Of a DNA stretch of 64,000 bases, positions 7,658-52,516 are shown piece by piece. The DNA is taken from positions 91,056 to 155,055 of the forward strand of contig JBDRSV010000024.1 in NCBI GenBank assembly GCA_043824495.1, written 5' to 3'. Origin of the DNA: Candidatus Aenigmatarchaeota archaeon (GTDB taxonomy: Archaea; Aenigmatarchaeota; Aenigmatarchaeia; QMZP01). Both the position numbers and the translations under genes were made by a program. Under the pieces are notes generated by a model. That model was not told the DNA's origin. It did not search any database and worked only from the letters and a program-made list of their open reading frames with translations. Each line of letters starts with the position of its first letter. The first letter of the stretch is position 1.

Positions 7658-8287
7658 ATGATTCAAATGAAAATTAAGATAATAAAAAAATCTGGAAATG
7701 ACCTTGAATTCACAGCTGAAAACATCAGTATACCTTTAGCAAATGCACTTAGAAGGATAATGATTTCTGAAGTGCCAACATTATCAGTTGACTGGATTGA
7801 TATTCATAATAATACATCTGTTTTGTTTGATGAGATGATATCTCACAGAATTGGTTTAATTCCAATAAAATTCAACCCTGATAAATTTAACTTTATAGAT
7901 GATTGTAAATGTGAAGGCAAAGGATGTACATTGTGTCAAGCAGTGTTCTCAGTGACCAAGAAAGGTCCATGTATTGTTTATTCGGGGGACATGAAACCTG
8001 CAAACAAAGAAGCAATTTTCACAGATCCTAAATTCCCTATAGTTGAACTTCTAGAAAATCAAGAAATCAAACTAGATGCTATTGCAAGACTTGGAATAGG
8101 ACAAAATCACTCAAAGAATCAAGCAGCTATAGCAGCATATGAATATGATGGTGACGGAAAAGCATTGAAATTTAAATTTAAGATAGAGTCTGTATCAGGT
8201 TTGAAACCTGATTACATTGTTGAAAAAGCAGCACATATATTAGAATTAAAAGCAGCGGAATTTAAGAAGGAAGTCAATAAGATATGA
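7658..8287 (+). CDS. rpoD: DNA-directed RNA polymerase subunit D (Rpo3)
   Basis: IPLANALRRIMISEVPTLSVDWIDIHNNTSVLFDEMISHRIGLIPI, with a Cys cluster CKCEGKGCTLC. Confidence 0.85.
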   Translation: MIQMKIKIIKKSGNDLEFTAENISIPLANALRRIMISEVPTLSVDWIDIHNNTSVLFDEMISHRIGLIPIKFNPDKFNFIDDCKCEGKGCTLCQAVFSVTKKGPCIVYSGDMKPANKEAIFTDPKFPIVELLENQEIKLDAIARLGIGQNHSKNQAAIAAYEYDGDGKALKFKFKIESVSGLKPDYIVEKAAHILELKAAEFKKEVNKI

Positions 8288-10248: not shown

Positions 10249-10782
10249 ATGAATATTCTCATACCAATGGCAGAGGGCTTTGAGGAAATAGAAGCTATTA
10301 CAGTTATAGATGTTTTCAGGAGAGCTGGAATCAATACTATCAGCGTCGGTCTTCCTGGTACAATGGTCACAGGAGCTCACGGCATCAAAGTTTTTGCTGA
10401 TAAGAGACTTGATGAAGTGAATATAGACGATTTTGATGCTCTTGTTCTTGTTGGTGGAGATCCTGGATACCACAATCTAGGTAAATCACAGAAGATAATA
10501 GAAGCCATCAAGAGGTTTGAAGCAGCAAAGAAACCTGTAGGAGCTATATGTACTGCGCCAGCTATTCTAGGTAAGCTAGGTCTACTAGACGAAAGAAGAG
10601 CAACAATATATCCCGGAATGGAGAGAGAGATACCAAGACCAAGAGGAAACAGAGTCATAGACGATGATAATATAATAACATCACAAGGACCTGGAACAGC
10701 TATGGAATTTGCTATCCAGATTGTGGATAAACTCAAGGGTCCTTCAATAGCGGGTAAGGTAAGAAGGGAACTGGTGGCTTAA
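10249..10782 (+). CDS. DJ-1/PfpI (ThiJ) family protein
   Basis: MNILIPMAEGFEEIEAITVIDVFRRAGI...FDALVLVGG...AICTAP has the nucleophile-elbow Cys. Start moved to ATG 10249. Confidence 0.85.
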   Translation: MNILIPMAEGFEEIEAITVIDVFRRAGINTISVGLPGTMVTGAHGIKVFADKRLDEVNIDDFDALVLVGGDPGYHNLGKSQKIIEAIKRFEAAKKPVGAICTAPAILGKLGLLDERRATIYPGMEREIPRPRGNRVIDDDNIITSQGPGTAMEFAIQIVDKLKGPSIAGKVRRELVA

Positions 10783-11007
10783 ATGAGCGGATTAACTGCA
10801 GCCGAGAAAGAAATTCTAGAAATAATGTCAAAGAGACTTTTAGTAACAACAAGAGAGTTGAACAAATTCTTGAGCTCTGATAAATACAATGGAGGAACTG
10901 ATTTTAGTTTACAGAGACTTGTAGATCAAGGATACTTAGAAAGAGTAGAATCCTTAGGGACAACTGTTGTTGTAACTCAGAAAGGCTTGAGAGCTCTAAA
11001 AGCTTGA
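10783..11007 (+). CDS. Small winged-helix DNA-binding protein
   Basis: 74 aa; LLVTTRELNKFL...LQRLVDQGYLERV is wHTH-like. The start abuts the upstream stop. Confidence 0.5.
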   Translation: MSGLTAAEKEILEIMSKRLLVTTRELNKFLSSDKYNGGTDFSLQRLVDQGYLERVESLGTTVVVTQKGLRALKA

Positions 11008-11070
11008 GTAAAGATCTTTTTATAGTAAAATGACATATATAGAAGTACTTCGATCGAATGATCTTAGAAT

Positions 11071-11234
11071 AGCCCCGTAGTGTAGTGGTCAAAGTTTGAC
11101 AACCTGTGTGCTCGCATGTAGTTGTCTACACGACTAGGCATATCGGGCCTTGGTTTTCGCAACTAAGGATCTGAGCGAGAAATCGCTGTGAAAGAGGATA
11201 CCCGGTGACTGCGGTTCGAATCCGCACGGGGCTA
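11071..11234 (+). tRNA. Intron-containing tRNA, tentatively tRNA-Gln(UUG), with two putative introns (11093-11137 and 11154-11199)
   Basis: The 5' AGCCCCG-TA-GTGT-AGTGGTCAA and 3' TGCGG-TTCGAAT-CCGCA-CGGGGCT-A give acceptor (A1:U72), D and T arms. Removing the two inserts leaves a 73-nt cloverleaf with anticodon loop CCUUGGA. Confidence 0.6.
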
Positions 11235-11266
11235 TCATTTTTATTGTATACTTACAATTATTTCTT

Positions 11267-12952
11267 ATGTATCCACTAGAAAAGTTCAGAGACGATATTA
11301 AATCAGTGATAGCTGAATACAAAAAGATAAAGAAAGATGAAGTTGTTTTAGCAAAACCTCCTCAAGGTATTCCAGCAGATTTAGCCTATCCATGTTTTGG
11401 CTTGGCTAAAAGAGAAAAAAGAGATCCAGTAGAATTTGCTCTCACAACAGTGGAGAAAATAAAACCTAGAGGATTGATATCCAGAATAGAAGCTAATGGT
11501 CCATACATAAACTTCTATGCAGACTGGAGTAAGATGGGAAGCTTAGTTTTGAATGGAATAATAAAAGAAAAAAACGCTTATGGTAAAGGAAAGAAAAAGA
11601 ATAAGATTCTAGTGGAACACACTTCAGCCAATCCAGATGGTCCTTTACATCTAGGTCATTTCAGAAACACTGTTATAGGAGACTCTTTAGCAAGAATATT
11701 ACGATTCTATGGTCATGAAGTAAAAACAGATTTCTATGTAAATGATACAGGAAGACAAATAACTCTAGCTTCTTGGATGTATTTACAAAATGAGCCTAAA
11801 CCTAAAGGTAAGCTAGATTGGTGGGTTTATGACTTGTATTTCAAATGTAACCAGAAATTGAAAACCAATCCAAGTATAGAAAATGAAATAACAGATATGA
11901 TGCTTAAGTTTGAAAATGGAGATAAAGAACTAAGAAAAACACATGAGTTCATAGTTGATCAATGCTTGAAGGGGCATAAAGAAACTCTAGAAAGCATTGG
12001 AATTAAAATCGATAGATTCTCAAAGGAAAGCGAATTCCTATTCACTGGAAAAGTTGATGATGTTTTGAAGAAGATACTCAAAACAAAGGAAGGAAAATCG
12101 TCTGGTAAAAGAGTATGGGTTGACTTGAAACAATTCAAAATAGAAAGAGAATTCACTCTAACAAGATCTGATGGAACAACAATTTATCCAGCAAGAGATT
12201 TGGCATATCATGCAGACAAGTTTGAAAGAGCAGATCAAAACATAAATATTATAGGAACAGATCAGAAATTTTACTTCAAGCAGTTAACATCAACTCTTGG
12301 TTTACTATTTCCAAAGAAAACAGAGAATTATCATGTTTTGTTTTATGAGTTTTTGCTGTTGCCAGAAGGAACAATGTCTACACGTTTAGGTAAATTTATT
12401 TCAGTTGATGAACTTGTAAAGAAATTTACAGAAACTGCAAGAAAAAGTATAGAAATAAAAAATCCAAAATACTCAACTAAATTCAAGGATGATATAGCTA
12501 AGATGGTTGGTATAGGTGCATTGAAGTATGCAATGATAAAAGTTTCGCCTGAGAAAACATATTCTTTCAGTGTGGATGACAGCCTAAATTTCGAAGGTAA
12601 CACGGCACCTTATATTCAATATACTCATGCAAGAGCTTCTTCGATACTTCAGAAAGCTGGTAGTAGCAAACATGTAATCAAGTATATAGGAGAAGAAGAG
12701 AAACAAGTCATGAACAAGTTAATGGAATTCCCATATGCAGTGAAAAGAGCTTCTAAAGAATATAGACCACACATAATAGCTAACTATGCATATGATCTAG
12801 CAACGTCTTTCAATAACTTCTATCACTCGGTTCCTGTACTGAAAGCAGAAAAAGACTTAATAGGAACAAGACTAGCTATAGTAAAAGCTGCTCAGATAGT
12901 TTTGAAAACAAGTCTAGATCTTCTAGGTATAGAAGCACCTGATAAGATGTAG
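11267..12952 (+). CDS. argS: Arginine--tRNA ligase
   Basis: HTSANPDGPLHLGHFRNTVIGD (class I HIGH region typical of ArgRS). 561 aa with a C-terminal anticodon-binding-like region. Confidence 0.9.
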   Translation: MYPLEKFRDDIKSVIAEYKKIKKDEVVLAKPPQGIPADLAYPCFGLAKREKRDPVEFALTTVEKIKPRGLISRIEANGPYINFYADWSKMGSLVLNGIIKEKNAYGKGKKKNKILVEHTSANPDGPLHLGHFRNTVIGDSLARILRFYGHEVKTDFYVNDTGRQITLASWMYLQNEPKPKGKLDWWVYDLYFKCNQKLKTNPSIENEITDMMLKFENGDKELRKTHEFIVDQCLKGHKETLESIGIKIDRFSKESEFLFTGKVDDVLKKILKTKEGKSSGKRVWVDLKQFKIEREFTLTRSDGTTIYPARDLAYHADKFERADQNINIIGTDQKFYFKQLTSTLGLLFPKKTENYHVLFYEFLLLPEGTMSTRLGKFISVDELVKKFTETARKSIEIKNPKYSTKFKDDIAKMVGIGALKYAMIKVSPEKTYSFSVDDSLNFEGNTAPYIQYTHARASSILQKAGSSKHVIKYIGEEEKQVMNKLMEFPYAVKRASKEYRPHIIANYAYDLATSFNNFYHSVPVLKAEKDLIGTRLAIVKAAQIVLKTSLDLLGIEAPDKM

Positions 12953-52045: not shown

Positions 52046-52144
52046 CTACTTTTGAACGTATTTAAGTCAAAAAGCTTATAAATCCTATATAAATAATACA
52101 AACCTAAGGGATGAAATCCCTCTTATGGGATGGAGGTAAAAAAT

Positions 52145-52516
52145 ATGGCAAAACCAAGTTTTGTAACATTCGATGTTCCTGCAGATGTAGTAAATAAAAT
52201 ATATGAGGCACTTTCCCTAGCAAACACTACAGGTAAGATAAGAAGAGGAGTAAACGAAGCAACAAAAGCAATAGAAAGAGGAAGCGCAAAGTTTATTGTT
52301 ATTGCAGAAGATGTAACTCCTGAAGAAGTAATCATGCACTTACCGTTGTTATGTAAGGAAAAGAAAATACCTTATGCATTTGTTCCTACAAAAGCAGAAT
52401 TGGGAAAAGCATCAGGAATAGATGTTCCAACATCTTCATTAGCTGTGCTTGAAGAAGGCGATTCTAAGAAAATCTTCGCAGAAGTTAAAGCTAAATTAGA
52501 TGCTTTGATCAAGTGA
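52145..52516 (+). CDS. rpl7ae: 50S ribosomal protein L7Ae
   Basis: TGKIRRGVNEATKAIERGSAKFIVIAEDVTPEEV...IPYAFVPTKAELGKA. Confidence 0.9.
   Translation: MAKPSFVTFDVPADVVNKIYEALSLANTTGKIRRGVNEATKAIERGSAKFIVIAEDVTPEEVIMHLPLLCKEKKIPYAFVPTKAELGKASGIDVPTSSLAVLEEGDSKKIFAEVKAKLDALIK

Follow-up and report, generated by a model that had tools for sequence, protein, structure and literature searches.

An archaeal tRNA-Gln(UUG) gene with two introns, C33 and a conserved intronic antisense and K-turn module that may guide modification of its own U34

The tRNA-Gln(UUG) gene and its introns

The 64,000-nt (64-kb) stretch of Candidatus Aenigmatarchaeota archaeon contig JBDRSV010000024.1 analysed here (the window) carries at 11071-11234 (+) a 164-nt tRNA-Gln(UUG) gene interrupted by two endonuclease-type introns. 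Coordinates are window positions, and introns and exons are numbered along the + strand (Table 1). A sequence-only reading of the window had proposed a tRNA gene with these limits, with inserts at 11093-11137 and 11154-11199. Re-reading of the sequence confirmed its coordinates and letters exactly, and removal of both inserts leaves a regular 73-nt cloverleaf that ARAGORN names tRNA-Gln(ttg). The anticodon loop of the spliced 73-mer reads C32 C33 U34 U35 G36 G37 A38, and the molecule has an A1:U72 pair, A73 and, as had been claimed, a 4-nt variable loop (UGAC). Aligned without gaps to the tRNA-Gln(UUG) of Ca. Methanodesulfokora, which has no intron, the 73-mer is identical at 66/73 positions, and exon 1 is collinear with intronless orthologs. 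A1:U72, the D-loop AGYGGYCAA, the variable loop UGAC and A73 agree with the tRNA-Gln of both H. volcanii and Methanodesulfokora, and the same layout is found in H. volcanii tDNA-Gln(TTG) and in the related loci L014, L016 and L021.

Relatives, cited by locus number (L001 and so on), were chosen by exon sequence or synteny only, blind to intron content. A neutral 3'-half probe, ACCCGGTGACNNCGGTTCGAA, run against species-representative genomes gave 31 loci with ~22 archaeal tRNA-Gln genes; an exon-anchored pattern with the intron left free gave 9 metagenome loci; and synteny alone gave two more orthologs, L046 and L048.

Every pair of cut sites in the gene was scored for the bulge-helix-bulge (BHB) arrangement, in which 4 bp of central helix separate two bulges of 3 nt and the cut follows the second base of a bulge. 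The pair of cuts that follows 11153 and precedes 11200 ranks first by far, with 4 bp in the central helix, 7 bp in the inner helix and 7 bp in the outer helix. The central helix pairs CCUU (11148-51) with GAGG (11194-97), the bulges are GG/U and AU/A (a slash marks the cut), the inner helix pairs UUUCGCA (11155-61) with UGUGAAA (11187-93), and the outer helix is the anticodon stem. With this strict hBHBh' motif at 37/38, the anticodon must be UUG and position 33 must be C. The motif at intron 1 is a relaxed HBh', the usual type for non-canonical introns: a central helix of GGUC (11087-90) and GACU (11132-35), a 5' bulge AA/A (11091-93), a 3' bulge AG/G (11136-38), an inner helix of 2 bp (GU/AC) and an outer helix of 0 bp. 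L023 and L045 have the motif at this site too, L004 has 3/4 of the central pairs, and the motif's central helix covaries (GGUC/GACU, GGCC/GGCU, GGUC/GGCU). A search for BHB motifs at the proposed junctions had been named as one check on the intron model, and both predicted boundaries agree with it exactly. Both helices that had been placed within the inserts are also present, one pairing GACAAC (11098-11103) with GUUGUC (11121-11126) inside intron 1 and the other, GCGA-GAAA-UCGC (11175-11186), inside intron 2.

Table 1. Features of the tRNA-Gln(UUG) gene and its immediate surroundings in the window.
Feature	Position	Strand	Description
Candidate TATA box	11017-11024	+	TTTTTATA; putative, ~47 nt upstream of the gene
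Exon 1	11071-11092	+	Acceptor 5' strand AGCCCCG, U8 A9, D-stem GUGU, D-loop AGUGGUCAA; tRNA positions 1-21
Intron 1	11093-11137	+	45 nt; D-loop/D-stem junction, after A21 and before G22; relaxed HBh'
Exon 2	11138-11153	+	16 nt; D-stem 3' strand GCAU, A26, anticodon-stem 5' strand UCGGG
Exon 2, loop part		+	C32 C33 11148-49, anticodon UUG 11150-52, G37 11153
C33 replacing near-universal U33	11149	+	Present in 10 distinct sequences
Intron 2	11154-11199	+	46 nt; canonical 37/38 site; strict hBHBh'
Antisense (D' guide)	11161-11168	+	AACUAAGG, 8 nt; pairs with C32-G37 and intron +1/+2 (11148-11155)
Box-D'-like CUGA	11171-11174	+	Always 2 nt past the antisense; GA invariant in 18 aligned introns
K-turn C-stem hairpin	11175-11186	+	GCGA-GAAA-UCGC; predicted; four pairs, all with double changes among relatives
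Box-C'-like strand	11187-11194	+	3-nt bulge UGU, sheared GA 11190-91, AAG; U-G-A invariant in 18 aligned introns
Exon 3	11200-11234	+	A38, anticodon-stem 3' strand CCCGG, variable loop UGAC, T-arm UGCGG-UUCGAAU-CCGCA
Exon 3, end		+	Acceptor 3' strand CGGGGCU, discriminator A73; CCA not encoded
T5 run	11238-11242	+	4 nt past the gene end

ARAGORN in its default mode misses the gene and calls no tRNA anywhere in the window, so that its Gln(ttg) call is one on the 73-mer spliced in silico. Rfam gave no match for the gene at gathering thresholds; at E<=10 it returned only T-arm fragments and no C/D family. A scan of the window for a T-arm plus acceptor stem found the tRNA gene and one other candidate, at 7908-8218 (+), which is AT-rich, lies inside the RpoD open reading frame (ORF), passes a loose filter and is judged to be a chance match. 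The tRNA-Gln gene is not a chance assembly, as it combines a top-ranked BHB motif, the 66/73 intronless match, syntenic orthologs, the sole credible T-arm/acceptor hit and a peak in G+C (0.47-0.49 at 11050-11250 vs ~0.33 in the flanks; 39% for the window). Its T-stem, acceptor stem and anticodon stem are intact and covary among relatives, which argues that the gene is under selection. We hold the identity of the gene, its exon/intron boundaries and the reality of C33 to be highly probable.

ARAGORN -i named the raw window gene His(gtg) (11070-11236) and window versions with one intron removed Pro(tgg/agg); both calls were rejected on stem mismatches, the lack of a BHB and comparison with orthologs. 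The sequence-only reading had preferred Gln over Pro and had judged the Pro(UGG) register to be of worse geometry. Both judgements stand: the Pro register brings a C31.A39 mismatch and a cut without a BHB, relatives with U33 read CUUUGGA in the Gln register, and the tRNA body matches archaeal tRNA-Gln. Because the mismatch is needed and the cuts lack a BHB, the Pro and His calls can be put down to a program that requires U33, and they are rejected as artefacts. Among relatives, ARAGORN -i called Pro(tgg) at L003 1453-1577, L006 5006-5131 (-), L007 6269-6395, L009 2379-2501 and L010 5652-5775, and it named the U33 relatives L038 and L043 'Stop(tta)' and L045 Arg(cct). Public annotations of these lineages likely carry such misnaming.

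Orthologs upstream of the arginyl-tRNA synthetase (ArgRS) gene have 1, 2 or 3 introns. L003 has the 37/38 intron only, and L048 has one intron; L001 has the 37/38 intron and a T-loop intron of ~78 nt (2631-2710); L004 has three, in the D-loop (at the window's site), at 37/38 and in the T-loop (1344-1376); and L046 has three. The D-loop intron at the window's site is found in L004, L023, L045 and L046 and is missing from L001, L003, L006, L007, L009 and L010. D-arm introns occupy three or more different sites among related tRNA-Gln genes. They lie after GGA at about position 24/25 in L019 and L030 and after GTCTAG on the 5' side of the D-loop in L026 and L035, and L008 and L031 have a 12-nt D-arm mini-intron whose best BHB register is displaced by 2 nt. 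Many relatives carry an extra T-loop or T-stem intron of 11 to ~90 nt (L046 at about 2480-2530; L008, L019, L022, L026, L034, L035 and L047 downstream of the GGTTCGAA match), and L047, a tRNA-Gln(CUG), has a T-loop intron only. Intron gain and loss are clearly active at the tRNA-Gln locus. A simple motif scan found no EndA gene in the window; broad-specificity EndA variants occur in several DPANN lineages (PMC5829648).

Downstream of the tRNA gene lies the ArgRS gene (11267-12952), and the genes of RpoD, S12, S7 and a DJ-1/PfpI protein, as well as a small ORF, are also neighbours. Relatives whose ArgRS is 63-65% identical retain the order DJ-1, small ORF, tRNA, ArgRS; synteny with ArgRS is partly lost in L046 and lost in L047 and L049. 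The small ORF (10780-11007 (+), protein end ...VVVTQKGLRALKA) always has the DJ-1/PfpI gene on one side and the tRNA-Gln gene on the other. Its counterparts in L001, L003, L004 and L048 are 71-73 aa long and have no Pfam match on record. The sequence TCTTTTTAT around the candidate TATA box is also present in L003 and L004, and the T5 run may, from what is known of archaeal termination, be an oligo-T terminator. In L046, precomputed Pfam hits place an intein and its LAGLIDADG domain in an upstream CDC48/AAA ATPase gene (1-1113). A second intron-containing tRNA-like gene, with acceptor strands GCGGGGG/CCCCCGC and a long insert, lies ~1.5 kb from the tRNA-Gln gene in two relatives (L006 6521-6626 (-) and L010 4145-4250 (+)); ARAGORN names it Ala(tgc) at one locus and Pro(tgg) at the other.

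C33 and the antisense and K-turn module

U33 is almost invariant in elongator tRNAs. The C at this position, pointed out in the sequence-only reading, is borne out by 10 distinct sequences with matching changes on both of its intronic pairing partners: GGGCCTTGG occurs in the window and in L001, L003, L004, L006, L007, L009, L010, L023 and L034. More distant relatives (L008/L031, L019, L030, L037, L038, L043, L045, L046 and L048) keep U33, which indicates that C33 is derived within a subclade. Opposite C33, a compensating G is present in the antisense strand of 9/10 and in the BHB strand of 10/10 C33 sequences. The 37/38 intron of L007 / L041 has A opposite C33 in the antisense (CCAAAG, an A.C mismatch) and G in the BHB strand, and may represent an evolutionary intermediate of the U33-to-C33 switch. 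Full-text literature searches, which were incomplete in coverage, found no description of C33 in tRNA-Gln.

The 37/38 introns share a module, present in 20/22 distinct related introns. It begins with an antisense of 6-8 nt to C32-G37 and intron bases +1/+2, followed by a spacer of exactly 2 nt and NUGA or UCGA; then come a hairpin whose sequence changes while its pairing is kept (or, in short introns, a loop of 2-6 nt), a 3-nt bulge NRU, and GA followed by (A/G/C)(A/G). In the window the module runs from 11161 to 11194 as AACUAAGG-AU-CUGA-GCGA GAAA UCGC-UGU-GA-AAG, and that of L008 is near-textbook (CCAAAG-CU-UUGA-AU-UGAUGA). NUGA, a C-stem that covaries, a 3-nt bulge with U as its last base, and GA together make a sequence pattern that fits a kink-turn (K-turn). 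We therefore regard the module as a predicted K-turn signature, or K-loop signature where the form is short, oriented D' to C' as in a box C/D RNA, with a putative guide at the D' guide place. The sequence-only reading had seen the hairpin, as AGCGA-GAAA-TCGCT, and the hairpin is present; what it missed is that this is the C-stem of a conserved, predicted K-turn adjoining an antisense to the anticodon loop.

The module is missing from the 31-nt intron of H. volcanii tRNA-Gln(UUG) and is thus no general property of tRNA-Gln introns. It is also missing from L026 and L035, with three introns each, and from the tRNA-Gln(CUG) introns of Nitrososphaeria and Burarchaeum. The longer 37/38 introns of L023 (108 nt) and L034 (121 nt) contain extra sequence 5' of the module with GC-rich hairpins, and partial box-C-like strings lie upstream (GAUGAGU in L023, GGAUGAU in L034).

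Pairing was assessed in a motif-anchored alignment of 18 sequences (A1), whose pair counts lean towards the model because the analyst chose the anchors on motifs. In A1, 94% of cells in the guide helix (antisense with anticodon loop) are paired, and pair 33:N4 is CG in 9, UA in 8 and other in 1. The BHB central helix is 100% paired, with pair 33:I-4 as CG in 10 and UA in 8. Each fold also has a covarying pair that exists in that fold only: I+1:N9 (UA 9, AU 7) in the guide fold and I+2:I-7 (UA 10, CG 6) in the BHB fold. Covariation thus supports each of the two folds, which indicates that both are selected. The covariation score for the guide and K-turn is 0.424 vs 0.222 for shuffles, is reached by 0/500 shuffles and falls to <=0.18 when the partners are slid. 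In mononucleotide shuffles of the window intron, antisense, spacing and GA occur together in 1.4% and the full module in 1.5e-5. The two folds of 11143-11205 are isoenergetic (guide -17.5 vs BHB -17.6 kcal/mol), and the minimum free energy structure of the whole precursor contains the guide helix. Because the GAAA of the K-turn strand also serves as the 3' strand of the BHB inner helix, the guide and BHB states are mutually exclusive. That the K-turn and antisense form a selected functional module is, in our assessment, very probable.

Candidate guidance of U34 methylation and alternative explanations

Several features point to a guide for 2'-O-methylation. The antisense forms an 8-bp duplex (N3-N10) at constant spacing from the D'-like box, and U34 pairs with A11166, the fifth base counting upstream from box D'. 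The N+5 rule predicts U34 as the target in every module-bearing intron, with U34 at N+5 in all 20. This position is a documented site elsewhere in Archaea: Pyrobaculum sR27 targets U34 of tRNA-Gln (PMC6009581), and S. acidocaldarius tRNA-Gln(UUG) bears 2'-O-methyluridine (Um34) or its 2-thio form (s2Um34) at this position (PMC7668247). The window also encodes L7Ae (52130-52516 (+), 128 aa, PF01248, E=1e-30), the protein that binds K-turns and would be the one to recognise the element in the intron. We propose that Um34 formation precedes splicing because N+5 is U34, U34 has these precedents, the intron of tRNA-Trp offers a parallel case (see below) and L7Ae is encoded.

In the proposed pathway, transcription would yield a two-intron pre-tRNA of ~164 nt. 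The intronic antisense at 11161-68, positioned 2 nt upstream of the K-turn formed by CUGA, the hairpin and UGU-GA, would first pair with the anticodon loop and intron bases +1/+2. L7Ae would bind the K-turn and, with Nop5-fibrillarin, would 2'-O-methylate the wobble U34, which faces the fifth nucleotide counted upstream from box D'. The precursor could then refold into the equally stable BHB, in which an endonuclease would excise both the intron with the strict BHB, at 37/38, and that with the HBh', in the D-loop, and a ligase would join the three exons into a 73-nt tRNA that keeps C33. Protein binding, methylation and the order of these events are, like guide activity itself, what we infer from sequence.

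Several points weigh against a guide of this kind, beyond the lean of the A1 counts. The bipartite architecture of a C/D plus a C'/D' motif is lacking, and one motif per intron is found by eye. A second K-turn or box C, sought by eye in the 5' part of the intron, intron 1, the exons and the variable-loop GUGA, gave nothing convincing, and neither the 5' part of the intron nor the exons showed another GA/GA pair by eye. Natural C/D RNAs are bipartite, and engineered single-motif 'hemi' complexes are poorly active and non-specific in vitro (PMC1635284). Box D' mostly reads UUGA or UCGA, not CUGA, and the bulge of the K-turn has 4 nt in L003 and an atypical form in L006. At 8 bp the guide duplex is short, and its two strands lie in cis, joined by a loop of 4-6 nt. 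A regex scan found no canonical C/D small RNA in the window. Nop5 and fibrillarin were not found in the 370 kb examined, where tblastn with a fibrillarin probe gave no hit; this is too little sequence to be informative. Both proteins belong to a 38-marker archaeal single-copy set (PMC9258230), and on the basis of that set they are presumed to be encoded in this genome. A box H/ACA guide was considered and rejected by inspection, as both candidate strands pair with the same bases 32-35, leaving no pocket, and an ACA box is lacking. Full-text searches of incomplete coverage yielded no report of a tRNA-Gln intron that contains a K-turn or a guide.

The chief alternative is that the K-turn and antisense form a folding or timing device without any 2'-O-methylation. 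L7Ae and the antisense hairpin would sequester the anticodon loop and break the BHB inner helix, and splicing would thereby be delayed or regulated, or an A+U-poor multi-intron precursor chaperoned. Two mutually exclusive folds of equal energy, each supported by covariation, are what such a device would have, as is the double use of the K-turn-strand GAAA in the BHB inner helix. The single K-turn and the poor performance of hemi C/D complexes in vitro fit it as well, and L7Ae binds K-turns beyond C/D ribonucleoproteins, for example in RNase P RNA (PMC4245976). A folding device leaves unexplained, however, why the spacing from antisense to GA is invariant, with U34 at N+5 in 20/20 module-bearing introns, and why this base coincides with a site documented as guided or methylated in other archaea. 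We consider this explanation unlikely, while guidance of Um34 as the function of the module stands at about even odds.

The gene might instead be a decaying pseudogene in which C33 and the inserts are degenerative, with a normal tRNA-Gln(UUG) elsewhere in the genome. Such decay would agree with the near-invariance of U33 in elongator tRNAs and with the failure of standard detectors. It is very improbable, given that all stems are intact, that the T-stem, acceptor and anticodon stem covary among relatives, that compensating G residues stand in both partner strands (9/10 and 10/10 C33 sequences) and that the genomic position is conserved across relatives with ArgRS 57-65% identical. Least credible of all, and refuted by comparison, is a tRNA-Pro(UGG) with one anticodon-loop intron, a normal U33 and something else as its D-arm insert, since the ARAGORN -i Pro(tgg) calls on which it draws (the window minus intron 1, and L003, L006, L007, L009 and L010) place the cuts at 11152/11197, where a BHB is lacking, and entail the C31.A39 mismatch and a variable region of 6 nt, while U33 relatives with the same body read CUUUGG/A, unambiguously UUG, and A1:U72, the D-loop and the variable loop match the tRNA-Gln of H. 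volcanii and Methanodesulfokora.

We conclude that the locus is probably best explained as a functional tRNA-Gln(UUG) with two introns, in which a guide would act to form Um34 and splicing would follow. The broader proposition is more tentative and falls somewhat short of an even chance: that the 37/38 intron of tRNA-Gln(UUG) holds a natural single-K-turn ('half-mer') C/D-type guide, conserved across Aenigmatarchaeota and related DPANN, that would direct methylation of its own U34 and act as a conformational switch placing methylation before splicing.

Implications and comparison with known systems

Because standard detectors miss or misname the gene, DPANN genomes would seem to be without tRNA-Gln(UUG) or to have a spurious tRNA-Pro, and such misannotation distorts estimates of tRNA complement and of completeness. 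The gene adds a conserved C33 elongator tRNA in Archaea, which bears on the dispensability of the U-turn uridine, and the presence of 1, 2 or 3 introns at moving D-arm and T-loop sites in close relatives makes a compact model of intron gain and loss. If the guide proposal is true, the principle of a self-guide within an intron would extend from tRNA-Trp to tRNA-Gln, the second such tRNA species known. It would also provide a counter-example to C/D guides being always bipartite, unless two precursors pair on one Nop5 dimer, and a minimal natural single-K-turn system for testing both the bipartite requirement and the ordering of modification before splicing by a two-state switch. The U33-to-C33 change, tracked by both intronic partners, would then indicate that pairing constraints in a pre-tRNA can override a highly conserved tRNA position.

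A multi-intron archaeal tRNA is itself of a known kind; what appears new by comparison is the conserved, doubly compensated C33 and the predicted single-K-turn self-guide module. Eukaryotic initiator tRNAs also have C33. Like them, and like the archaeal precedent of Sulfolobales tRNA-Cys(GCA) (PMC7668247), the present gene has a conserved C in place of U33 in a tRNA that is evidently functional; it differs in being an elongator tRNA-Gln of an Aenigmatarchaeota subclade, in which the change is followed by two intronic partners.

M. kandleri pre-tRNA-Glu(UUC) has a canonical BHB intron and a D-loop HBh' intron (PMC5829648). This pre-tRNA and the multi-intron tRNAs of Thermoproteales resemble the present gene, with its strict BHB at 37/38 and predicted relaxed HBh' in the D-loop, in this combination, in their short middle exon ending in G37 and in their reliance on a broad-specificity splicing endonuclease, which the present gene would share. 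The differences are that the present case is in the DPANN Aenigmatarchaeota and in another tRNA, and that close relatives have 1 to 3 introns with a shifting D-arm site.

The nucleotide concerned in the cases of Pyrobaculum sR27 and the Um34/s2Um34 of S. acidocaldarius (PMC6009581, PMC7668247) is the one predicted here as the target, U34 of tRNA-Gln. sR27 is free-standing, bipartite and acts in trans, whereas the Gln module lies in an intron, contains one K-turn and would act in cis, or in trans from one precursor to another.

The nearest precedent is a box C/D guide inside the pre-tRNA-Trp intron, which guides Cm34 and Um39 of its own tRNA, with modification before splicing (PMC2584109, PMC4090602). 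This guide, in the 37/38 intron of pre-tRNA-Trp(CCA), is found in Haloferax, Pyrococcus and at least 29 archaea, and was called 'a unique example' (PMC4090602). Both cases have a canonical tRNA intron with an antisense to its own anticodon loop directly upstream of a D-type box, N+5 at position 34, and a hairpin linking D' and C'. In both, pairing of the guide, a putative one in tRNA-Gln, uses intron bases, so that modification must precede splicing. They differ in that tRNA-Trp introns have the full set of C, D', C' and D boxes and two 12-nt guides, whereas the Gln module has one D'/C'-type K-turn and one 8-nt guide; its host is tRNA-Gln, its predicted target is U34, and its boxes are degenerate (UUGA/UCGA; NRUGA-A/G-A/G).

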